This document shows positions 29,909 through 63,544 of a DNA stretch of 64,000 nucleotides, piece by piece. Made by a program: the position numbers and the translations under genes. Every line of letters begins with the position of its first letter. The stretch's first letter is position 1. Location of the stretch: NCBI GenBank assembly GCA_963717085.1, contig CAVQVM010000011.1, forward strand, positions 233,108 to 297,107. The letters run 5' to 3'. The notes under the pieces were generated by a model. The model made no database searches and was not told where the DNA came from. It was given only the letters and a program-made list of their open reading frames with translations. This DNA comes from an uncultured bacterium. GTDB taxonomy: Bacteria > Actinomycetota > Acidimicrobiia > Acidimicrobiales > VFJN01.

Positions 29909-30955
29909 CTAGACCGCGGGGATGACCTCGTCGTGGATCAGGCGCAGCTGTGTGTCGACGTCGGCCACCCCCTCGATGTCCATCCCCGTGAACGCCTTGA
30001 CGAGGCTGCGGTCGGTGATCGCCAGGATCATGTGGTTCACGCCTGCCGGGGCGATCTCGTCGCGGATCTTGGCCGCGCACTCGGCCGGCGAGCCCGACAC
30101 CGACAGCCGCTCGGCCAGCGCCGGCGACGTCAGCTCTACGCCCTTGGCCAGGTCGCCGCCCCCGATGGCGTCGATGATCGGCTTCAGCTCGGCGGCGTCG
30201 ACGCCGTTGCGCGCGAGCTGCTCGGCGGGCATCGACGAGGCGTAGATGCCGACCATCGCGCGCGCCGCGTCCTTCGCTTTTGCCGCGTCCGGGCCGGTGG
30301 CGAACACCACCCACGCACCGATGTCGAGCGCGTCGGCGTTCTTGCCGGCCCGCTCGGCGCCGATGCGGAAGTGCTCGACGGCGAAGTCGTACGCCCCTCT
30401 CGTGTAGCTGAGCGCGTGGTGGCAGCCGTCGGACAGCTCACCGGCCGCCTCGAACGACTTCGGCCCGCGCATCGCCCCGATCATCACCGGTACGCGCTCC
30501 TGCACCGGCCGGGCGAACGTGAACAGCCCGTTGTAGGTGAAGAACTCGCCTGAGAACGTGATCGCGCCGTCATCGAGCAGCGTGCGTATGACGTGGTGCG
30601 CCTCCTTGGTGCGCGACAGCGGCCTGGTCGTCGTCCAGTCGATGCCGTACTGGGCGAGCAGCCCGAAGTTGCCGCTGGAGATCACCGCCTCGGCGCGCCC
30701 ACCCGAGAGCTCGTCGAGGGTGGCGATGGACTGGGCGATCAGCGTCGGCTCGCGCAGCACGACCGACGACAGGCTCGGCCCGAAGCGGATGTTCTCGGTC
30801 TGCGTCGCGGCGGCGGCGAACAGCAACCACATGTCCTTGTGCCACGTCTCGTCGGCGGCGTAGCAGGCGTGGAAGCCGAGCTCGTCGGCCAGCTTGATCG
30901 ACGCGAGCGACTCCGCCAGCGGGTAGTCGGGCAAGAGGACGTAGCTGTACTTCAC
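29909..30955 (-). CDS. LLM-class F420-dependent oxidoreductase (Mer/FGD-like)
   Basis: [41 protein letters not shown]... is a luciferase-like TIM-barrel pattern. 4-nt overlap with the upstream gene. Confidence 0.85.
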
Positions 30956-31290
30956 GGTGATCCTCCCTCACTCTGGATCGCATCGGGTGCTTCGGTGGTT
31001 CCGGTGGGGGGTTCAGCGTCGAGCTCGGCGAGGAGCTCGGCGCCCGACACGACGCGCTCGGCGAAGTGTCGATGCATCCACGCCAGGTGGTCGTGACGGC
31101 TGTGCATGATCCGCAACGTGTCCCAGTTGGGGAACGTCTGCTGGAGCACCCACCGCTCCATCAGGCGGGGATCGACCTCGTAGACGTGCTCGAAGCGGGT
31201 GATCGCCACGTCGCTCGCCCGCGCCGCCGGCGGCGGCGTCGTCTGCTCGGCGTGGCGGTAGCCGATCGGGCCGTTCGGGCCGGCCATCAC
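30952..31290 (-). CDS. Hypothetical His-rich small protein
   Basis: 112 aa, ATGA-coupled on both sides inside the operon. Contains MHSRHDHLAWMHRHF. No family recognised. Confidence 0.55.
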   Translation of the reverse strand: MMAGPNGPIGYRHAEQTTPPPAARASDVAITRFEHVYEVDPRLMERWVLQQTFPNWDTLRIMHSRHDHLAWMHRHFAERVVSGAELLAELDAEPPTGTTEAPDAIQSEGGSP

Positions 31291-32795
31291 CGACCACCTC
31301 CCTCATACGCCCTGTCGAGGCCGTACTTGCCGGGGTTCATGATGTTGTTCGGGTCGAGCAACCGCTTGACGTCGAGCATCACGCCGTAGCCGCGCCCGAG
31401 CTCCTCGGGCACCAGATCGACCTCGCCCTCCCGGCACGACCCGTGGCAGGCACTGATCGAGCCGCGGTAGCGCAGCGTCACCGCTGCGATGTCCCGCTTG
31501 GCCTGCACCCACAGCCGCCATGCCTCCTCACCGAGCTGCTGCTCCCAGATCCCGACGTCGATCTCGGTGAGGTAGTCGATGCCGGTCGCCCCGTTGGTGT
31601 AGGCGAACATCCCCCAGTCGTCGAAGACGTCGGTGCGCCGACGCAGCTCGGTGACAATGGCGTGCCACTCCCGCGTGACGGCGGGCAGGTTGGTGTGGCT
31701 GATCGAGGCGTCCTCGCAGTGCCAGCTCATCGGCACGACCTGACCCGAGCGGGTGCGACCGTGCAGCGGCGTCGCGTAGCGGTCGTGGCGCGCGGCCCAG
31801 TCGCCCTCGGAGATCTCGTCGCCGAGGTAGCGTCCGCCGTGCTCGCGGGCGATGCGCAGGAGGCGCTTGCCGCCGACGCGCACCTCGTCCTCCCACCCGT
31901 ACAGCGCCGTGCACACCAGCGCCTTCACGTCCGATGGCTGGGGGATGTAGGCCTCGTCATCGCGGCGCAGGTAGGCGACCTTCCACTCGTCGAACAGCAC
32001 GGCCCCGGCGAAGGTGGCGACGCCGGCCCGGGCGAGCGCGCCGACGCAGCGGTGGGCGCTGTCGTAGTCACTGAAGGCGAAGAACGGCGACAGCTCCGCC
32101 TCCGGCTTCGGGAACAGCTTGAGCGTCGCCCGGGTGGCGATCCCGAGCGTGCCCTGGTGACCCATGAACAGGTGCTTGAGCTGGTAGCCGCTCGAGCTGC
32201 GGGTGATGTTTCCGCCGATGCCGTCGCCGACGTGCATCACCTCGCCCGTCGGCAGGACGTGGTCGAAGCTGAGCACGAGGTCGCGGGTGTGCCCGTAGCG
32301 CGACCCGATCAGCGACCAGCCGCTCGTGCCGATCCGCCCCCCGACGAGGGAGCACGGGTACGACGCCGGGTTGTCCGGGTAGATCAGCCCGTGCCGGCCG
32401 AGGACCTCGTTGAGCTTGAGCATGTTGATGCCGACGCCGACGGTGCAGGTGCGGTTGTCGAGGTCGATCTCGTGGATCTGGTTCATCCGCTTGACGTCGA
32501 CGAGGATCCCGTGGCGCAGCGGCACGGCGCCGTCGGTCAGCCCCGTGCCGCCGTCGCGGGGCACGATCGGCACGGCCAGCTCGTTGGCGAGGCGGACGAC
32601 TGTGACGACGTCGTCGGTCGACTCGGGCAGCACGACGACGTCGGGGACGTGCTCGGACCACCGGTGCACCGGGAACGGGGCGGGCGTTCTCGCCCGGTTG
32701 AATCGGTCGGCCTTCGATGTCAGCACCTGGTCGGCGCGCAGGACGCCCTGCAGCCGGCTGACGAGGTGGTCGAGAGCGTCGGCGGTGAGGCTCAT
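31287..32795 (-). CDS. FAD-binding oxidoreductase (GlcD / FAD_binding_4 family)
   Basis: VVLPESTDDVVTVVRLANELAVPIVPRDGGTGLTDGAVPLRHGILVDVKRMNQI. 502 aa. Confidence 0.88.
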   Translation of the reverse strand: MSLTADALDHLVSRLQGVLRADQVLTSKADRFNRARTPAPFPVHRWSEHVPDVVVLPESTDDVVTVVRLANELAVPIVPRDGGTGLTDGAVPLRHGILVDVKRMNQIHEIDLDNRTCTVGVGINMLKLNEVLGRHGLIYPDNPASYPCSLVGGRIGTSGWSLIGSRYGHTRDLVLSFDHVLPTGEVMHVGDGIGGNITRSSSGYQLKHLFMGHQGTLGIATRATLKLFPKPEAELSPFFAFSDYDSAHRCVGALARAGVATFAGAVLFDEWKVAYLRRDDEAYIPQPSDVKALVCTALYGWEDEVRVGGKRLLRIAREHGGRYLGDEISEGDWAARHDRYATPLHGRTRSGQVVPMSWHCEDASISHTNLPAVTREWHAIVTELRRRTDVFDDWGMFAYTNGATGIDYLTEIDVGIWEQQLGEEAWRLWVQAKRDIAAVTLRYRGSISACHGSCREGEVDLVPEELGRGYGVMLDVKRLLDPNNIMNPGKYGLDRAYEGGGR

Positions 32796-32926
32796 TGCTT
32801 CCCGCTCTTGCTGCTTCGCAGCGGGCCGCTCGGGCTGTCGACGTGTTTTCTCCCGCTCCCACGGCCGCTCGGGCCGGGCTCGCTCTCACCTTGCTTCCCC
32901 GTCACCCTCGACGGACGCTCGCTCAT
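32792..32926 (-). repeat. Intercistronic dispersed repeat (copy A) containing a 44-codon mini-ORF ATGA-coupled to both neighbours
   Basis: The Fe-S gene TGA (32925-32923) overlaps ATG 32926. The mini-ORF (MSERPSRVTGKQGESEPGPSGRGSGRKHVDSPSGPLRSSKSGKQ) has a TGA (32794-32792) that overlaps the FAD-oxidase ATG 32795. Its 3' 45 nt are 43/45 identical to copy B. Confidence 0.8.
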
Positions 32927-34263
32927 CGCCCGGTGCCCGCGTCGCCGCCGACGTCGATCCCCAGCGACTCGGCGAGCAGCTCGTGGAGGTCGACGACGTC
33001 GATGCTCGCCTCGGCGCCCGCCGCGGTGAGCGGGCGCTCGGACCACGGGCAGGCGCTGACGAGCGTGTCGACGTCGAGCGTTGCGGCGTGCTCGATGCGC
33101 CGGGCGCTGATCGCAGCAGTCAGCTCCGGCTTCTCGATGGCCAGCCCGCCGCCGGCACCCGAGCAGTACGACCACTGGGTGACCCGGTCGACGTCGTGGA
33201 AGGTCAGCCCGGGGATGGCCCGCAGGATCTCGCGCGGCTCGCGCCAGATCCCCTTGCGCTTGTTCAGCCGGCACGGGTCGTGATACGTGACGGTGCGCTC
33301 GATCGGGACGTCGGGGCGCAGCCGGCCGTCGCCCAGCATCTCGGCGAACAGCTCGACGACGAGCACGACCTCGATGTCGAAGTCGTCGCCGAAGTAGCGC
33401 GGGTAGTCCTCGGTGAAGCTGATGTAGTCGTGGGGGTCGAGCACGAGCACCCGGCGGGCGCCAGTGGCGCGCCAATCGGCGAGGTTGTGCTCGGCGAAGC
33501 GGCGGGCCTGGTCGGTGTAGCCCATCTCGGCTGCCGGGCCGCCACAGCACCACTGCTCTGCCATCAGCCCGAACTCGTAGCCGGCGCGCTGGAGGATCTG
33601 GGCCACCGCCCGCGGCACCGAGGTGCGGTAGAAAGCGGCCTCGCAGTCGACGAACAGGATCGACTCGCCGCCGATCGGCAGGTCGAGGCCGTCGGCCCAG
33701 TCGCGGACGTGCTCCTGGCTCACCGGCGTGTCGCCAAGCACGGGCTCGTGGGTTCGCTCGCCGGTCGACGCGTTCCAGCGCTGCCACGCCGGCTGGTGGA
33801 CGCCCTCGTCGACGGCGAGCGCGCGCATCGCCTTGACGACGTCGACGGTACGGGTGCGGAAGCGGTAGAAGTCCCCGGTGAACAGCGTGTTCGGGCAGCG
33901 GAGCTCGCACGCCCCGCACTGCGTGCAGTTGACGTAGTCGGCGGCCACGTCGGCCACGTCGAGGTGGCCGCGCTCCATCGCCACGACGTTGGCGTGGAAC
34001 GCCGTCGGCGACCACGACTCGTTGCGCGTGACCTGCACGACCGGGCACACCTCGCGGCAGAACTTGTGGCCGGAGGAGAAGCAGTTGTAGGAGCCGTTGT
34101 GCCACTCTGCGAGGAACTCCACCGTGCGCTCGTCGCGTCCCGGCGCCGCCGGCGGGGCGACCGCCACGGTGTCCGGCTGGGCGTCCCACGGCTCGCCGCC
34201 GTCCCCCGATCCGGGCGTGTACGGCTCGGCCAACGACCGTCGCTGGTCGTCCGTCTCCGTCAT
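32923..34263 (-). CDS. (Fe-S)-binding protein, GlcF/HdrD-like with CCG domains
   Basis: Ferredoxin-type CTQCGACELRCPN plus Cys-rich CCG-type motifs (FVDCEAAFY, YHDPCRL). I prefer ATG 34263 (MTETDDQ) over the TTG at 34287. Confidence 0.85.
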   Translation of the reverse strand: MTETDDQRRSLAEPYTPGSGDGGEPWDAQPDTVAVAPPAAPGRDERTVEFLAEWHNGSYNCFSSGHKFCREVCPVVQVTRNESWSPTAFHANVVAMERGHLDVADVAADYVNCTQCGACELRCPNTLFTGDFYRFRTRTVDVVKAMRALAVDEGVHQPAWQRWNASTGERTHEPVLGDTPVSQEHVRDWADGLDLPIGGESILFVDCEAAFYRTSVPRAVAQILQRAGYEFGLMAEQWCCGGPAAEMGYTDQARRFAEHNLADWRATGARRVLVLDPHDYISFTEDYPRYFGDDFDIEVVLVVELFAEMLGDGRLRPDVPIERTVTYHDPCRLNKRKGIWREPREILRAIPGLTFHDVDRVTQWSYCSGAGGGLAIEKPELTAAISARRIEHAATLDVDTLVSACPWSERPLTAAGAEASIDVVDLHELLAESLGIDVGGDAGTGR

Positions 34264-43122: not shown

Positions 43123-43199
<77 letters not shown>

Positions 43200-52849: not shown

Positions 52850-53063
52850 CGTGGGAGGCCTCCAACACGCCGCCGCACCCCCGGCACCGGGCCCGCCATC
52901 CCGTCGGCGTGACCTGCACGGTCAGCCAGCGGCCGCAGTCCACGCAGAAGCGCCACGGCTCGTAGGGGCCGGAGCAACCCGGGCACTCCTCCACGGGAGC
53001 ACCGCACCCCGAGCAGTGGCGCCAGTGGGCCGGGGCGGGGAGAGTCGAGCGCGCAGGTGCCAA
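52818..53063 (-). CDS. Small zinc-ribbon protein (four CxxC pairs)
   Basis: CSGC, CPGC, CVDC, CRGC. High third-position GC. The only in-frame start is TTG 53063, 9 nt after an AGGAG. Overlaps the add 5' end. Confidence 0.5.
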   Translation of the reverse strand: MAPARSTLPAPAHWRHCSGCGAPVEECPGCSGPYEPWRFCVDCGRWLTVQVTPTGWRARCRGCGGVLEASHGASTSDGRRP

Positions 53064-53262
53064 CTCAGATCACTCCTGAGGCCGAGCGCAGGCGAGGCCG
53101 GCCCGAGCGGCCGTGGGAGCGGGAGGCACACGCCGAAGCCCGAGCGGCCGTGGGAGCGGAAGGCGCATGCCGAAGCCCGAGCGGCCCGGCGCCGGAGGCG
53201 CCAAGAGCGGGAAACGCCGCGGACGCTCGACGCACCTTCTCTAGCCCTCCCACTCAGATCAC
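53063..53262 (+). repeat. Dispersed repeat copy C (inverted relative to host genes) with 37-bp sub-repeats, flanked by an 11-bp direct repeat
   Basis: The + strand carries GCCCGAGCGGCCGTGGGAGCGGGAGG..., matching the minus strand of copy A. Sub-repeats 53101-53137 and 53138-53174 are 34/37 identical. ACTCAGATCAC occurs at 53063-53073 and 53252-53262. Confidence 0.75.
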
Positions 53263-54258
53263 CTTCGACAGCGTGCCCACGGGCATGCGCAGGTTGTCGA
53301 GCATGACCAGGTCCTCCTGTGGGGCTCGGCCCAGGGTCGTCAGGTAGTTGCCGACGATCAGGGCGTTGACGCCCGCCGTCATCCCCATCTCCTGCAGCTC
53401 ACCCAGCGTGACCTCCCGGCCGCCGGCATAGCGCAGGATCACGTCCGGCAGGGCCAGGCGGAACAGCGCGATCCAGCGGATCGCCTCCCGCGCCGCCACC
53501 AGCGGGCGACCGGCCAGCGGCGTGCCCGGGCGGGGATCGAGGAAGTTGAGGGGCACCTCGGCCGGCCCCGCCTCCCGCAGCTGCCCGAGCAGCTCGATGC
53601 GCTGCTCCTCGGATTCCCCCATCCCCAAGAGCACGCCACAGCACAGCTCCATCCCGTTCTGCCGGACGAGCTGGCAGGTGGCGAACCGCTCCTCCCAGGT
53701 GTGGGTGGTCACGATGTGCGGGAAGTGCGACCGGGCGGTCTCGAGGTTGTGGTTGTAGCGGTGGGTACCGGCGGCGGCGAGGCGACGGGCCTGGTCGTCG
53801 TCGAGGATGCCGGCGCTGACCGCGACGTTGAGGCCCGTCTCGCGGCGGATGAGGGGCACGACCTCCTCGAGATGCGCCATCAACCGCTCGTCGGGGCCGC
53901 GCACGGCGTAGACCAGGCAGAACTCGCTGGCTCCCAGGGCCGCCGTCTCCGTGGCCGCGGCCACCACCTCGTCGTGTCCCAGCAGCGGGACCGCCTTCAC
54001 CGGCGAGTCGTAGCGCGCGGACTGCGAGCAGAACTGGCAGTCCTCGGGGCAGCCGCCCGTCTTGGCGGACAGGATCCCCTCGACCTCGACGACGTCGCCG
54101 CACCACGCCAGGCGCACCTCGTGCGCGAGCGCGGCCAGCGGCGCGTCGTCGGCATCGGGCACACCCGCCAGGTCCGACAGCTCGTCGAGTGTCAGCTGGC
54201 GCCGATCGTCGAGCAGCGCCCGTCGGGCGGCGTCGAGCAGTTCGGTCGTGGCTGGCAC
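53254..54258 (-). CDS. bioB: Biotin synthase
   Basis: Radical-SAM CPEDCQFCSQS, YNHNLET, and the C-terminal region typical of BioB. I prefer GTG 54258 (334 aa); the long ORF up to 54750 is an upstream extension. Confidence 0.88.
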   Translation of the reverse strand: MPATTELLDAARRALLDDRRQLTLDELSDLAGVPDADDAPLAALAHEVRLAWCGDVVEVEGILSAKTGGCPEDCQFCSQSARYDSPVKAVPLLGHDEVVAAATETAALGASEFCLVYAVRGPDERLMAHLEEVVPLIRRETGLNVAVSAGILDDDQARRLAAAGTHRYNHNLETARSHFPHIVTTHTWEERFATCQLVRQNGMELCCGVLLGMGESEEQRIELLGQLREAGPAEVPLNFLDPRPGTPLAGRPLVAAREAIRWIALFRLALPDVILRYAGGREVTLGELQEMGMTAGVNALIVGNYLTTLGRAPQEDLVMLDNLRMPVGTLSKVI

Positions 54259-54380
54259 GGCCGGTGACGTTACTGGCGACCGCGACCACGAACCCGAATC
54301 GTTCCGGTGGGAGCCGTGCGGCACACACCCGGACGGCTTCACCCAGTTGCGTCTGGCGGACGGCTCGGGGCGGTCGGGCC

Positions 54381-55394
54381 CTAGCGCCCGGCCTGGAACA
54401 CCACCCGCAGCGCCGCCGGCTCCTCGATGCAGCGGCCGGCGCCCAGCACGACGCACTCGAGGGCGCTTTCGACGAGGTGCACGTCGATCTCGGTCTCGTG
54501 GGCGATGCGCTGGTCGAGGCCGGCCAGCATGCCGCCCCCGCCCACCAAGTGCAGGCCCTGGGTGATGAGGTCGTGGGCCAGCTCGGGCGGTGCGTTCCCG
54601 AGGCACGCGACGACCGACTCGATGATCTCGGTGATCACGTCGTCGATGGCGGCGCGGATCTCGGCCGGCGTCAGGATCACCGTCTTCGGCAGGCCCGATG
54701 CCAGGTCCCGCCCCCGGACCTCGGCCTTGAGCTCGTCGCGCACCGGCCACGCCGATCCGATGGCGATCTTGATCTCCTCGGCGGTGCGCTCGCCCACGGC
54801 GATGCCGTACTCACGCCGCACGTAGGCCTGGATGGCCCCGTCGATGTCGAAGCTGCCGACCCGCACGGCGTCGAGTGCCACCACCCCGCCGAGCGACACC
54901 AGGGCGGTCTCGGTGGTGCCGCCCCCGACGTCGATCACCAGGCTGGCGATTGGCTCGTGGATCGGGAGGCCGCAGCCGATGGCGGCGGCCATGGGCTGCT
55001 CGATGAGGAAGGCGTCCGTGGCCCCCGCCCGCCGCGCGGCCTCGGCCACCGCCCGCCGCTCGACCTCCGTGATGGCCGAGGGCACACAGACCACCACGCG
55101 TGGCCGGTTGAAGCGGCCGACCCGCACGCGGTGCAACAGCAGCCGGATCATCCTCTGCGTCACGTCGAAGTCCGTGATCGCGCCCTGGCGGAGGGGGCGC
55201 TCGGCGACGATGTCGCTGGGGGTGCGCCCGATCATCTGCCAGGCGTCGTGGCCCATCGCCAGCACCTCACGGGTGCGGGTGTTGAGGGCGATCACGGTCG
55301 GCTCGTTGAGGACGATGCCGCGGCCCCGCTCGTAGACGAGGGTGTTGGCGGTACCGAGGTCGATGGCGAGGTCGCGGGCCACTACCGCTTCCAC
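54381..55394 (-). CDS. mreB: Rod-shape-determining actin homologue MreB
   Basis: RDLAIDLGTANTLVY, EPMAAAIG, VIDVGGGTTE, GGGGMLAGLD motifs. GTG start at 55394. Confidence 0.92.
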   Translation of the reverse strand: MEAVVARDLAIDLGTANTLVYERGRGIVLNEPTVIALNTRTREVLAMGHDAWQMIGRTPSDIVAERPLRQGAITDFDVTQRMIRLLLHRVRVGRFNRPRVVVCVPSAITEVERRAVAEAARRAGATDAFLIEQPMAAAIGCGLPIHEPIASLVIDVGGGTTETALVSLGGVVALDAVRVGSFDIDGAIQAYVRREYGIAVGERTAEEIKIAIGSAWPVRDELKAEVRGRDLASGLPKTVILTPAEIRAAIDDVITEIIESVVACLGNAPPELAHDLITQGLHLVGGGGMLAGLDQRIAHETEIDVHLVESALECVVLGAGRCIEEPAALRVVFQAGR

Positions 55395-61425: not shown

Positions 61426-62148
61426 TCATGCAGTCGCCGCCGTCTTCGGCGTGTCGTACTTGTAGCCCAGGCCGCGGATGGTGACGATGCGGGTGGGTAC
61501 CGACGGGTCCCGCTCGACCTTGGCCCGCAGCCGCTTGATGTGCACGTCGAGGGTCTTGGTGTCGCCGACGTAGTCGGTGCCCCACACCCGGTCGATGAGG
61601 GTCTCGCGGGGTAGCACCCGCCCAGCGTTCGTCAGGAGGATCTCGAGCAGCTCGAACTCCTTGAGCGGGAGGCGCACCTGCTCGCCCCGGATCTCCACCT
61701 CGTGGCGCTCGGGGTCGAGTCGGACATCGCCCACCTGGAGCACGTCGCCGGACGCGGCCCGCGTCCCCGCCTCCGGGGGCCGCCGACGGAGCACCGCCCG
61801 CATGCGCGCCACCAGCTCGCGCAGGCGATAGGGCTTGGTGACGTAGTCGTCGGCACCGACCTCCAGGCCGACCACCGTGTCGATCTCCGACCCCTTGGCG
61901 GTGACCATGATGATGGGCACCGCCGAGCGCCGCCGCAGCTCGCGGCACACGTCCACCCCCGAGACCTTGGGGAGCATCACGTCGAGCAGCACCAGGTCGG
62001 GCTTCACGACGTCGAACAGGTCGAGTGCCTCCGCGCCGTCGTGCGCCACCTGCACACGGAAGCCCTCGCGCTTGAGGCCCACGGTGAGCGCCTCGACGAA
62101 GCTGTCCTCGTCCTCGACGAGGAACACGGTGGCCTCGGGAGTACTCAT
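61426..62148 (-). CDS. regX3: OmpR-family response regulator, RegX3 orthologue
   Basis: ATG 62148 (MSTPEATVFLVEDED...). LLDVMLP, IIMVTAKGSEIDTVVGLEVGADDYVTKPY, LIDRVWGTDYVGDTKTLDVHIKRLRAKVE. Closely parallels the mycobacterial RegX3 sequence as I recall it. Confidence 0.9.
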   Translation of the reverse strand: MSTPEATVFLVEDEDSFVEALTVGLKREGFRVQVAHDGAEALDLFDVVKPDLVLLDVMLPKVSGVDVCRELRRRSAVPIIMVTAKGSEIDTVVGLEVGADDYVTKPYRLRELVARMRAVLRRRPPEAGTRAASGDVLQVGDVRLDPERHEVEIRGEQVRLPLKEFELLEILLTNAGRVLPRETLIDRVWGTDYVGDTKTLDVHIKRLRAKVERDPSVPTRIVTIRGLGYKYDTPKTAATA

Positions 62149-62287
62149 TGCTCCCCGCTCATGCTGCTTCGCAGCGGGCCGCTCGGGCTCCGGCGTGTGA
62201 TCTTCCGCTCTTGCGTGTCGCACGTCACCCTGACGCGGCGGGCCGCTCGGGCCCAAGACTCACTCTCTCGCCCTTCGGGACGCTCGT

Positions 62288-62291
<4 letters not shown>
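62145..62291 (-). repeat. Intercistronic dispersed repeat (copy B) in the senX3-regX3 spacer, with a 48-codon ATGA-coupled mini-ORF
   Basis: The kinase TGA (62290-62288) overlaps ATG 62291. The mini-ORF (MNERPEGRESESWARAARRVRVTCDTQERKITRRSPSGPLRSSMSGEQ) has a TGA (62147-62145) that overlaps regX3 ATG 62148. Confidence 0.8.

Positions 62292-63540
<1,249 letters not shown>

Positions 63541-63544
<4 letters not shown>

Follow-up and report, generated by a model that had tools for sequence, protein, structure and literature searches.

The Fe-S/FAD-oxidase operon and its bridging mini-ORF

The window, as we call the whole 64,000-nt stretch of DNA that was analysed (contig CAVQVM010000011.1, from an uncultured member of the Acidimicrobiales), contains a minus-strand operon. 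Its Fe-S subunit gene (32923–34263, −) encodes a GlcF/LutA-like protein in which Pfam recognizes a 4Fe-4S dicluster domain and two CCG cysteine-rich domains (PF02754, PF13183). The longest Fe-S ORF extends to 34287, and the start at 34263 (ATGACGGAG) yields 446 residues, in agreement with the gene call in L002. The downstream gene (31287–32795, −) encodes a 502-residue FAD-linked oxidase with FAD_binding_4 (PF01565) and FAD-oxidase_C (PF02913) domains, similar to GlcD or D-lactate dehydrogenase, with homologues named FAD-binding oxidoreductase or glycolate oxidase. The remaining operon (29909–31290, −) comprises a 112-residue protein (30952–31290) and a luciferase-like monooxygenase (29909–30955; Pfam Bac_luciferase). 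The gene order is identical in L241–L244, and the Pfam domains (CCG and 4Fe-4S, FAD_binding_4 and FAD-oxidase_C, Bac_luciferase) match the gene descriptions in an earlier note made from the sequence alone.

The Fe-S and FAD-oxidase genes are bridged by a mini-ORF of 44 codons plus stop (32792–32926, −; translation MSERPSRVTGKQGESEPGPSGRGSGRKHVDSPSGPLRSSKSGKQ). Its ATG (32924–32926) overlaps the TGA stop of the Fe-S ORF (32923–32925), its own TGA stop (32792–32794) overlaps the ATG of the FAD-oxidase gene (32793–32795), and the two junction ATGs are 131 nt apart (3n + 2). Translation, ATGA overlaps and spacing were all confirmed as the earlier note had given them. The same note had described every other junction in the operon as ATGA; the overlaps are present, but the downstream junctions carry GTGATG and GTGA, reading GGTGATGG (GTGA or TGATG) and CCGTGAAG (GTGA).

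Modular architecture of the repeat

The repeat at this junction (copy A) is built from discrete modules, all on the minus strand. The left direct repeat, ATGAGC (32921–32926), is one copy of a duplicated junction that is single in the empty site of L241, and the right direct repeat, also ATGAGC (32790–32795), is the start of the FAD-oxidase gene, as seen by comparing filled and empty sites. The inserted element proper measures 125 nt (32796–32920) and is missing from L241, a 96.8%-identical relative. The head module (32899–32924) consists of GAGCGAGCGTCC (32913–32924) followed by a hairpin, CCGTC-GAGGGT-GACGG (32899–32914), that appears in the predicted fold. Unit A1 (39 nt, 32836–32874) contains the core GCCCGAGCGGCC, the short variable segment GTGG, GAGCGGGAG and a spacer. 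Unit A2 with the tail (32796–32835) has its core at 32824–32835 and a covarying hairpin, GCTGC-GAA-GCAGC, at 32810–32822; it ends with GAGCGGG (32801–32807) and the purine-rich tail GAAGCA directly before the FAD-oxidase ATG. The CCCGCT...AGCGGG stem that had been noted at 32801–32825 is present.

Across the family, the consensus has three parts: a head, TGAGCGAGCGTCC, with a variable hairpin; at least one unit, running from GCCCGAGCGGCC through a C-GNA-G hairpin to GAGCGGRR; and a purine-rich tail ending in NTGA. Long forms have imperfect terminal inverted repeats of ~19 bp (for instance AGAGGCCGAGCGGATAGGC and GCCTATCCGCGTGGCCTCT in L042) and 11–14-bp flanking repeats, and occur away from junctions; copies A and B lack the right arm.

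C-GNA-G loops form extra-stable DNA mini-hairpins (PMC13037366, PMC3201870). In the family, 94.9% of cells are paired, double-sided changes number 47 against 12.3 ± 3.5 in shuffles (0 of 500 reach this value), and 48 of 105 variable segments have a perfect stem 5 bp long or longer, against 2.6 expected. About 25 different stems occur. The nucleic-acid hairpin of the element is selected and covarying.

At the RNA level, the fold of copy A is not stabler than its shuffles (z = −0.1), and its minimum-free-energy structure gives no sign of the hairpin covering the Shine–Dalgarno sequence or the ATG; a structural role in coupling is therefore unsupported, and a hairpin enforcing coupling by occluding these sites was rejected. 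A known RNA family was also rejected: a scan of the window with Rfam 15 at gathering thresholds returned tRNA only, and a permissive scan of 32700–33000 only noise (17–18 bits against cut-offs of 70–79).

Two further copies in the window

Copy B (62145–62291, −) has two units and a 48-codon mini-ORF with ATGA at both ends; as the earlier note had recorded, its product shares with that of copy A the M-x-ERP start and the SPSGPLRSS-x-SG-x-Q end. A 26-mer common to copies A and B occurs exactly twice in the window, with no occurrence expected from 100 shuffles, so the repeat is no product of chance. Upstream of copy B lies a SenX3-like kinase (62288–63544, −; 44% identical to Mycobacterium tuberculosis SenX3) and downstream a RegX3-like response regulator (61426–62148, −; 61% identical to M. 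tuberculosis RegX3), so that the junction is the ortholog of the M. tuberculosis senX3-regX3 junction.

A third copy (copy C, ~53074–53251, +), unmentioned in the note, belongs to the same superfamily. With its flanking repeats it spans 53063–53262 and contains three tandem 37-nt units with cores at 53101, 53138 and 53175. Its left end is GAGGCCGAGCG and its right end, CGCGGACGCTCG, is an inverted head-like sequence; the copy is flanked by an 11-bp direct repeat, ACTCAGATCAC (53063–53073 and 53252–53262), which includes the stop codon of a radical-SAM gene. Copy C is antisense to both neighbouring genes and has no mini-ORF bridge. An exact-protein look-up of the radical-SAM neighbour, for unit-number alleles of copy C that could serve as a control without translation, gave no match.

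Insertion, empty sites and unit-number polymorphism

The filled site of the window reads GCG-ATGAGC-[125 nt]-ATGAGC-CTCACC and the empty site of L241 (98% amino-acid and 96.8% nucleotide identity) reads GCGATGAGCCTCACC. The element is an insertion, because in this close relative the Fe-S and FAD-oxidase genes are in direct ATGA overlap. The same two genes overlap directly by GTGA in L243 and in Pseudonocardia L244, and these overlaps argue against L241 being a derived deletion of an ancestral spacer. The comparison supports the note's proposal of a dispersed repeat inserted into the operon junction without breaking start/stop coupling, and its expectation that the two genes would be coupled directly where the element is absent (ATGA in L241, GTGA in L243 and L244). 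Its statement that the element supplies the downstream ATG is partly right: the empty site already carries ATGAGC, which the insertion duplicated. In a second filled/empty pair, L189 and L198, respectively, 77 nt are inserted precisely at a start codon, with duplication of the ATG.

Unit number is polymorphic as well. Among copy A alleles with identical flanking proteins, unit A1 (exactly 39 nt) is missing in L002 and L204, and the copy B allele of L001, again with identical flanking proteins, has one unit fewer (−66 nt); both loci thus exist with one or two units in such strains. Copy B of a related species, L179, is a 24-codon version. Across the family, up to 4 units are found in junction copies and 6–7 in other arrays. 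Flanking duplications of 3, 6, 11, 12, 14, 22 and 28 bp were observed, a range that does not fit a simple fixed-stagger transposase. At the copy A junction, the element is present in L234 (94.5% identical) and absent from the closer L241 (96.8%), so precise loss, re-insertion or recombination must also occur. In L242, the Fe-S/FAD junction carries a different repeat in three 92-nt (3n + 2) copies, each of which starts with the gene's own ATGACGAYCA and forms an ATGA-linked 31-codon ORF.

A large family that keeps its frame

A genome scan returned at least 118 family stretches; about four fifths of the matches listed are labelled Acidimicrobiia, and the family is large and resides mostly in this class. 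Complete Acidimicrobiia chromosomes with copies include OZ244866.1, OZ241903.1 and OZ220727.1. The reference-genome DNA nearest to the window is a Microthrixaceae MAG (76–82% nucleotide identity over ~2 kb). A literature search found no earlier description relevant to this repeat in Acidimicrobiia. Family copies sit at unrelated genes without a common function, and intergenic copies are sense to both neighbours in 30 cases against 6 antisense, as counted from exact-core matches that replaced a too permissive fuzzy pattern (279 matches).

A metagenome scan with a pattern that contained no ATGA gave 74 distinct family matches, in which the head is abutted by TGA in 61 and by NTGA in 58, with NTGAG directly before the head in 58 of the 74. 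Overlap couples 42 of the 58 distinct head-bearing copies to the gene that follows, and 11 are fused to it in the true gene frame; one lies at a contig end and four are neither coupled nor fused. A random frame would leave about two thirds coupled or fused, and the observed 53 of 57 is an excess that is real but not enormous. The tail places a stop in frame with the head ATG in 30 of 35 cases, although the search was not conditioned on this frame. Family copies are related by descent, and counts of in-frame copies overstate the independent support; distinct length classes are the fairer measure, and 11 distinct lengths are in frame against 4 out of frame. Mini-ORF length ranges from 23 to 65 codons, and frame is maintained family-wide.

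Comparison with mycobacterial MIRUs

Insertion at start codons and gene junctions with an overlap-linked small ORF was described for the MIRUs by Supply et al. 1997 (summarized in PMC12548453 and PMC3184786). One paper (PMC4213456) limits MIRUs to M. leprae and the M. tuberculosis complex, and a 2025 review places them in many mycobacteria (PMC12548453). The present family resembles them in its short units (40–100 bp), often in tandem and variable in number between strains; in insertion at start codons and operon junctions, along the direction of transcription; in filled and empty sites with short direct repeats including ATGA; in a small ORF that overlaps the stop of the gene before it with its start and the start of the gene after it with its stop (−4 spacing); in copies that run in frame into the downstream gene; and in GC-rich internal inverted repeats. 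All these likenesses were confirmed by direct comparison with the real M. tuberculosis senX3-regX3 locus (L245), where 77-nt units each start at ATGA, the first two encode ATGA-linked 25-codon ORFs, the third continues into regX3 in the same frame (in this strain) and the MIRU head ATGACC is the regX3 start. In the window, copies A and B point in the same direction as the genes on either side and, like the 42 coupled family copies, carry the overlap-linked ORF; filled sites, compared with empty ones, have duplicated direct repeats (ATGAGC for the window against L241, ATG for L189 against L198), and tandem unit number varies between strains at both window loci.

There are differences as well. 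The host is not Mycobacterium: the family is found mainly in MAGs of Acidimicrobiia, a different class. No sequence homology is detectable; the element is modular, made of a head, a variable number of hairpin units and a tail, so that units can be read in any frame; and long forms with terminal inverted repeats exist outside junctions. We regard the family as new, of MIRU type in its behaviour and apparently unrelated in sequence.

Comparison with other repeat systems

The BOX elements of Streptococcus pneumoniae are modular intergenic repeats composed of boxA, a variable number of boxB and boxC, and the present repeat has a boxA-like head and a variable number of boxB-like units, to which its long form adds a boxC-like tail with partial complementarity to the head. 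The two are, however, unrelated in sequence and in host phylum, and we know of no report of BOX elements on start/stop overlaps or with bridging ORFs. REP/BIME elements and REPINs, mobilized by RAYT (IS200/IS605-like) transposases, share with this family a short GC-rich hairpin adjoining a motif that is conserved and single-stranded, assembly into mosaics or tandem arrays, a transcribed intergenic location and a possible single-stranded DNA hairpin substrate. REPs differ in lying after stop codons rather than on start codons, in having no known bridging ORF and in stems that are uniform within a genome, in contrast to the many stems of this family. Nothing suggestive of a RAYT (Y1 HUH) gene was noticed beside the copies examined.

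Rickettsia palindromic elements are selfish repeats tolerated because they are in frame. The 11 in-frame N-terminal fusions described above behave similarly. Rickettsia elements, however, enter coding sequences and become part of the protein, whereas most copies here form a separate, coupled ORF outside it. MITEs such as Correia/NEMIS or ERIC are non-autonomous and flanked by direct repeats; the likeness extends to non-autonomous size, flanking repeats and co-transcription with neighbours, and perhaps to the imperfect terminal inverted repeats of the long forms (copy C, too, has head-like inverted ends). However, the flanking repeats have no fixed length (3–28 bp, unlike a target-site duplication), junction-type copies lack the right arm, and no parent IS is known.

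A ribosome-relay model and its alternatives

Copy A is best explained, with a probability of about 0.8, as the insertion of a modular, hairpin-bearing Acidimicrobiia repeat whose mini-ORF relays ribosomes and preserves coupling in a MIRU-like manner. The element entered precisely at an ATGA overlap that the Fe-S and FAD-oxidase genes already had, and the junction ATGAGC was duplicated. Each end of the insert therefore has a stop/start overlap, and the insert length keeps the Fe-S-side and FAD-oxidase ATGs 3n + 2 apart. A ribosome ending at the Fe-S TGA would re-initiate on the overlapping mini-ORF ATG, translate 44 codons without function of their own, end at the mini-ORF TGA and re-initiate on the overlapping FAD-oxidase ATG; through this relay, the translational coupling of the operon would survive insertion. 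The element would be tolerated because a throw-away mini-ORF carries ribosomes across the gap. From sequence comparison, the mini-ORF is predicted to be translated, frame maintenance probably reflects purifying selection on coupling, and the element appears to be, or to have been, mobile. The earlier suggestion that coupling is preserved holds in that start/stop overlaps stand at both ends of the insert.

It could be argued that the repeat is kept for its product, a conserved functional micro-peptide (M-x-ERP…SPSGPLRSS-x-SG-x-Q); the earlier note took the reading frame to be conserved beyond the DNA. Copies A and B do share peptide termini, and many single-unit copies encode nearly the same 24–26-residue peptide (MSERP.GRESERGPSGPLRSSKSGKQ), but DNA identity accounts for this similarity. 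The shared frame of copies A and B is real at both ends and breaks down inside, where PSGRGSG (A) stands against ARAARR (B); units occur in all three frames, being read as PSGP, ARAAR or PERP depending on the copy, and in two frames within copy B alone. Stops in this frame in other copies were to count against conservation, and in the frame used in the window the commonest unit variant (…GGCCCGTGAGCG…) contains a TGA. The three codon positions vary to an equal extent (11/9/11, 5/6/7 and 22/17/23 variable sites), and the ratio of synonymous to nonsynonymous changes in the mini-ORF frame (42:171) is like that of the control frames (26:167 and 46:155). Each compensatory stem change alters two residues, mini-ORF length is far from constant, and the 11 fused copies join the downstream protein instead. 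What is conserved is length and frame together with the covarying C-GNA-G hairpin, not the peptide, on which there is no constraint; a micro-peptide was rejected on frame usage, codon-position and substitution tests and is very improbable. A useful cis role, by tuning the Fe-S:FAD ratio, by mRNA stabilization or processing through the hairpins or by an internal promoter, is improbable to a lesser degree. Selection on the hairpin speaks for it, as do the spread of the family across a whole class and the tail, whose purine-rich GGGAAG or GGGGAG lies within a few nucleotides of the ATG it precedes and has no counterpart in the empty site. Copy B, moreover, lies in a two-component junction whose MIRU-containing spacer has reported promoter activity in M. 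tuberculosis (PMC4213456). The hairpin may, however, be selected just as well for the spread of the element itself, and strains whose flanking proteins are identical or nearly so differ in whether they have the element and in how many units it contains, which fits a dispensable element. The copies also share no functional class of gene, the overall fold is not unusual and has no Rfam match, and a consensus scan of copy A and its surroundings found neither a sigma-70-like promoter nor an intrinsic terminator, so an internal promoter or terminator there was rejected.

Local tandem duplication or slippage of the junction, without mobility or dispersal, would explain why unit number differs between strains and why long gene-start duplications flank several copies (28 nt in L004, 22 nt in L054, ~20 nt in L174). 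Such a process can change the number of units but cannot disperse them: dozens of loci that have nothing else in common, in many genomes and metagenomes, carry this head, unit and tail, and the window alone holds three copies at unrelated genes. Slippage remains valid as a mechanism of unit gain and loss and is refuted for dispersal; as a full account of the element it is scarcely credible. True homology to the MIRUs, through inheritance or transfer within Actinomycetota, draws on an identical organization, checked on the real M. tuberculosis locus, on the shared orthologous senX3-regX3 junction and on an 11-mer, GAGCGNAGCGA (N being T in M. tuberculosis, C in MIRU292 and C, A or G here), that is fairly element-specific, with 68 of 86 occurrences in 1.7 Mb beside a unit. 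The 11-mer, the only sequence in common, is weak evidence, because both families are GAGCG-rich and of low complexity. Pairwise alignment to MIRU292 (the M. avium paratuberculosis unit taken from PMC7977185) is marginal (z = 2.4; 69 of 2000 shuffles are as good), and when nhmmer profiles were built from 25 junction-type elements and from 62 units, the M. tuberculosis spacer and MIRU292 scored ~0 with them, at the level of shuffled sequences. Homology, suggested by a resemblance in GAGCGCAGCGA…GAGCGG, was rejected on these results, and we consider it quite unlikely.

Alongside the preferred reading of copy A as a MIRU-like insertion, a broader proposal can be put forward tentatively: the family and the MIRUs may be two branches of an ancient, Actinomycetota-wide class of mobile DNA. 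Its members would insert at stop/start codons (TGAG/ATGA), would have as their defining feature a C-GNA-G mini-hairpin on the sense strand within GAGCG motifs and would propagate through a single-stranded DNA intermediate by means of a host- or element-encoded enzyme. We hold this to be possible, though unlikely.

Implications for mobile DNA and gene annotation

MIRUs are used worldwide for tuberculosis typing, and how they move and why they prefer start codons is still unexplained. The papers cited here describe them in mycobacteria only, and an abundant family in another actinobacterial class, unrelated in sequence, behaves alike and is present even in the orthologous senX3-regX3 junction, which suggests that insertion into start/stop overlaps combined with a relay ORF is a general strategy of selfish DNA in gene-dense, high-GC genomes. 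If the two-branch proposal were true, the ~30-year-old question of MIRU movement would become testable by comparative genomics. Many recent filled/empty and unit-number polymorphisms were seen in Acidimicrobiia. The many natural filled and empty alleles and length variants lend themselves to the study of mobility and of termination-reinitiation coupling. For annotation, mini-ORF copies should not be taken for conserved micro-proteins, and gene finders can go wrong on the mini-ORFs and the resulting N-terminal 'extensions'; several records give M. tuberculosis RegX3 a length of 245–277 residues, not 227.

Junction architecture and element anatomy

Copy A of the repeat (32796–32920, minus strand) lies between two minus-strand genes: an Fe-S gene with Pfam 4Fe-4S and CCG domains upstream, and an FAD-oxidase gene (FAD_binding_4 and FAD-oxidase_C) downstream. 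The same operon encodes a 112-aa protein without Pfam assignment and a luciferase-like monooxygenase (LLM) recognized by Pfam. The Fe-S TGA (32923–32925, minus strand) overlaps an ATG (32924–32926) that opens a 44-codon mini-ORF, whose translation is exactly that of the earlier note and whose TGA (32792–32794) overlaps the FAD-oxidase ATG (32793–32795). The 131-nt spacing between the two junction ATGs and the CCCGCT…AGCGGG stem at 32801–32825 are also as first described. Copy B (62145–62291), between genes assigned by Pfam to a histidine kinase and an OmpR-type response regulator, has an equal arrangement with a 48-codon ORF. The two copies have in common a 26-nt identical stretch found nowhere else in the window (G+C 70.5%), with 0 expected in shuffles. 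The remaining operon junctions, which had all been called ATGA overlaps, do overlap but read GGTGATGG and CCGTGAAG, i.e. GTGA/TGATG. The original count of two copies overlooked a third, at ~53074–53251 on the plus strand; a profile search of the window found no copies beyond these three.

The element is modular, with a head, at least one unit and a tail. The head consists of TGAGCGAGCGTCC and, after it, a hairpin that varies between copies (in copy A, CCGTC-GAGGGT-GACGG), the unit of GCCCGAGCGGCC, a variable segment and GAGCGGRR, and the tail is purine-rich with NTGA at its end. In copy A, a short 39-nt unit is joined to a terminal unit whose hairpin is GCTGC-GAA-GCAGC; copy B combines a 64-nt unit, with a differing hairpin (CGTCA-GGG-TGACG), and the same terminal unit. 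Copy C (53063–53262, plus strand) is antisense relative to both neighbours and carries three tandem units between inverted, head-like ends. Its units measure 37 nt (3n+1), whereas the equivalent unit in copy A, whose ORF bridges genes, measures 39 nt. Copy C is flanked by an 11-bp direct repeat, ACTCAGATCAC (53063–53073 and 53252–53262), which takes in the stop codon of a radical-SAM/BATS gene (53254–54750, minus strand). Across the window, the only Rfam gathering-threshold match is a tRNA gene (43126–43199, minus strand).

A polymorphic insertion

Exact look-ups of the flanking proteins retrieved metagenome contigs encoding proteins identical to those of the window, in which one unit fewer is present at copy A (L002, −39 nt) or at copy B (L001, −66 nt); both differences are multiples of three. 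The Fe-S/FAD operon was then compared across loci retrieved as FAD-oxidase homologues. The junction contains one unit in L204 and L002 (~99% nucleotide identity to the window), two units in L234 (94.5% nucleotide), and three tandem copies of a different 92-nt repeat in L242 (89% amino acid). In keeping with the proposal that the insertion was accommodated at a coupled junction, the two genes overlap directly in relatives without the element, through ATGA in L241 (98% amino acid, 96.8% nucleotide) and GTGA in L243 (83% amino acid) and L244 (Pseudonocardia xinjiangensis, 82% amino acid). The filled window junction reads GCG-ATGAGC-[125 nt]-ATGAGC-CTCACC versus GCGATGAGCCTCACC in the empty L241; the element has therefore inserted into an ATGA junction, and the duplication on its flanks includes the junction itself. 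Copy A is thus a genuine, polymorphic insertion, and gain and loss of the element at this junction are both recent.

Filled and empty alleles occur elsewhere. L189 differs from L198 by a 77-nt insertion precisely at a start codon without an upstream gene, with the ATG duplicated and the gene one codon longer; a long-form copy likewise has an empty allele (L020 versus L010). Flanking direct duplications of 11–28 bp (L004, L036, L051, L053, L054 and copy C) all include TGAG (a stop codon followed by G), and this sequence pattern suggests that the target is anchored on TGAG/ATGA or that it shares microhomology with the TGAG… end of the element.

The FAD/112-aa (31283–31310, minus strand) and 112-aa/LLM (30948–30975, minus strand) junctions have a strong GGGAGG Shine-Dalgarno sequence 8–12 nt 5' of the overlapping start. 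The empty Fe-S/FAD site in L241 has none, so before insertion this junction probably relied on termination-reinitiation alone. Two FAD-oxidase homologues, P0017 (879 aa) and P0091 (750 aa), also contain the CCG Fe-S domain PF02754; therefore, the subunits may be fused in some lineages, or the gene caller merged overlapping genes.

Frame and hairpin are maintained, the peptide is not

A metagenome scan used a pattern of head and core only, so that no ATGA was built into it. It gave 74 distinct family hits, with a TGA directly abutting the head in 61/74 and an overlapping start codon in 58/74. Among these 58 copies, 42 are overlap-coupled to the downstream gene or next tandem copy (38 by NTGA, 3 by TGATG or TAATG, 1 joined to the next tandem copy), 11 place the head ATG in the true frame of the downstream gene as an in-frame N-terminal fusion, 1 runs off the contig end, and 4 are neither coupled nor fused. 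Mini-ORFs span 23–65 codons. When frame is not conditioned on, the tail stop is in frame with the head ATG in 30/35 tails. Shared ancestry makes the copies non-independent, so a count of length classes is fairer, and this count (11 distinct lengths in frame versus 4 out of frame) points to frame maintenance across the family. Many copies lack an upstream gene altogether, and the general position of the element is on a start codon, not specifically at an operon junction. The fused copies (L146, L159, L172, L174, L182, L187, L197, L209, L215, L223, L229) mostly have the hairpin variant GGCC-GAAG-GCC and the tail GCAACGA, with predicted N-terminal extensions of ~25–50 aa, e.g. on a 6-phosphogluconate-dehydrogenase-like protein in L146.

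The earlier note had further proposed that the peptide frame of the repeat is conserved between copies. The ORF is indeed open in copies A and B, but depending on the copy the unit's frame gives PSGP…, ARAAR… or PERP…, the two units of copy B lie in different frames, and in the window's frame a TGA interrupts the commonest unit variant (…GGCCCGTGAGCGCAGCG…). Within equal-length classes, the three codon positions contribute evenly to the variable sites (11/9/11, 5/6/7 and 22/17/23), and the mini-ORF frame, with 42:171 synonymous to nonsynonymous changes, is like the two control frames (26:167 and 46:155). Stops in this frame were among the outcomes that the earlier note itself had named as refuting a conserved peptide. 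Conservation of the peptide does not survive these comparisons, and a functional peptide is very improbable. Besides length, the conserved feature is the hairpin. Perfect stems of 5 bp or more are present in 48/105 distinct variable segments versus 2.6 expected (maximum 8), with ~25 different stem sequences. In 43 equal-length units, 94.9% of cells pair versus 69.6% in shuffles, double-sided changes number 47 versus 12.3±3.5 (reached by 0/500 shuffles), pairing collapses in all slid registers, and G·U pairs number just two. A C·G pair closes the G-N-A loop, and the commonest unit variant contains GCGCAGC, GCGAAGC or GCGGAGC; GCGNAGC and d(GNA) triloops are documented DNA mini-hairpins of exceptional stability (PMC13037366, PMC3201870). 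The scarce wobble pairs and the kind of loop are a hint that the hairpin may act at the DNA level, perhaps in propagation.

An adaptive cis-regulatory role is possible but unlikely. At copy A, the whole RNA fold is unremarkable (z = −0.1), with no sequestration of the Shine-Dalgarno sequence or ATG, and no promoter-like or terminator-like site was found there; the element has no Rfam match. The arrangement first noticed is real as a whole, and its most likely explanation, held at a confidence of about 0.8, is that a MIRU-like repeat, selfish or neutral, is tolerated via a relay mini-ORF, which would pass ribosomes across the insert and so make the element tolerable.

Relation to MIRUs and distribution

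The passages of PMC12548453 and PMC3184786 that cite Supply et al. 1997 describe MIRUs as 40–100-bp units with imperfect terminal inverted repeats, GC-rich internal inverted repeats, and filled and empty sites that show tetranucleotide direct repeats; one paper confines them to M. leprae and the M. tuberculosis complex (PMC4213456). Copy B is flanked by orthologues of M. tuberculosis regX3 and senX3 (61% and 44% identity, respectively), and the MIRU organisation at that locus (L245) corresponds to that of the Acidimicrobiia element in every point. At L245, three units of 77 nt (3n+2) each start with ATGA and open with ATGACC, like regX3; the first two each form an ATGA-linked 25-codon ORF, and in this strain the third continues in frame into regX3. 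Several public M. tuberculosis RegX3 gene calls (L245:1356-2271; P0121–P0124) are N-terminally extended into MIRUs, at 245–277 aa versus 227. Sequence homology to MIRUs was undetectable in profile searches, and a published MIRU292 unit (PMC7977185) aligns pairwise with marginal similarity; the sole common sequence is an 11-mer, GAGCGNAGCGA. With the same organisation and no detectable homology, the element is therefore classed as MIRU-like in its working and outside the MIRU sequence family. It is new, being sequence-unrelated to MIRUs and in a new bacterial class, though its kind is known.

The 92-nt repeat of L242 (three tandem copies, L242:2225-2500) occupies the same Fe-S/FAD junction. Every copy starts with ATGACGAYCA, as the FAD gene itself does, and constitutes a 31-codon ORF linked through ATGA (MT[T/I]MAFPGHAGRCWSLARWRSLARIVDRVHP*). 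Since a repeat of differing sequence bridges too, bridging arises from junction duplication plus a 3n+2 length and is independent of the particular element sequence. Read on the opposite strand, this repeat is rich in GCGAGCGAGCG and contains GGGAACGCCATGA and the hairpin CGGCC-TGCGT-GGCCG, and it may be a family relative in the other orientation.

A scan of one genome per species found the unit core in at least 118 stretches; among the matches listed, about four-fifths come from Acidimicrobiia MAGs (Ca. Aldehydirespirator, Poriferisodalis, Microthrixaceae and others) and tandem arrays reach six units. In addition to the junction form, the family includes longer forms, whose terminal inverted repeats (~19 bp) are imperfect, and short forms abutting stop codons. 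Co-orientation with neighbours is preferred (sense/sense 30, antisense/antisense 6). The nearest reference-genome DNA to the window is a Microthrixaceae MAG, at 76–82% identity. In a MAG labelled Acidobacteria (L012:1498-1636), two canonical units with the hairpin GCCGC-GAA-GCGGC lie inside a ~102-nt tandem repeat, so either the family reaches outside Acidimicrobiia or the contig is mis-binned. Long 9-nt-period arrays made of the core motif in L133, L157 and L186 (CCCGAGCGG, CCCGAGCGT, CCCAAGCGG) look like a micro- or minisatellite derived from the element's core.
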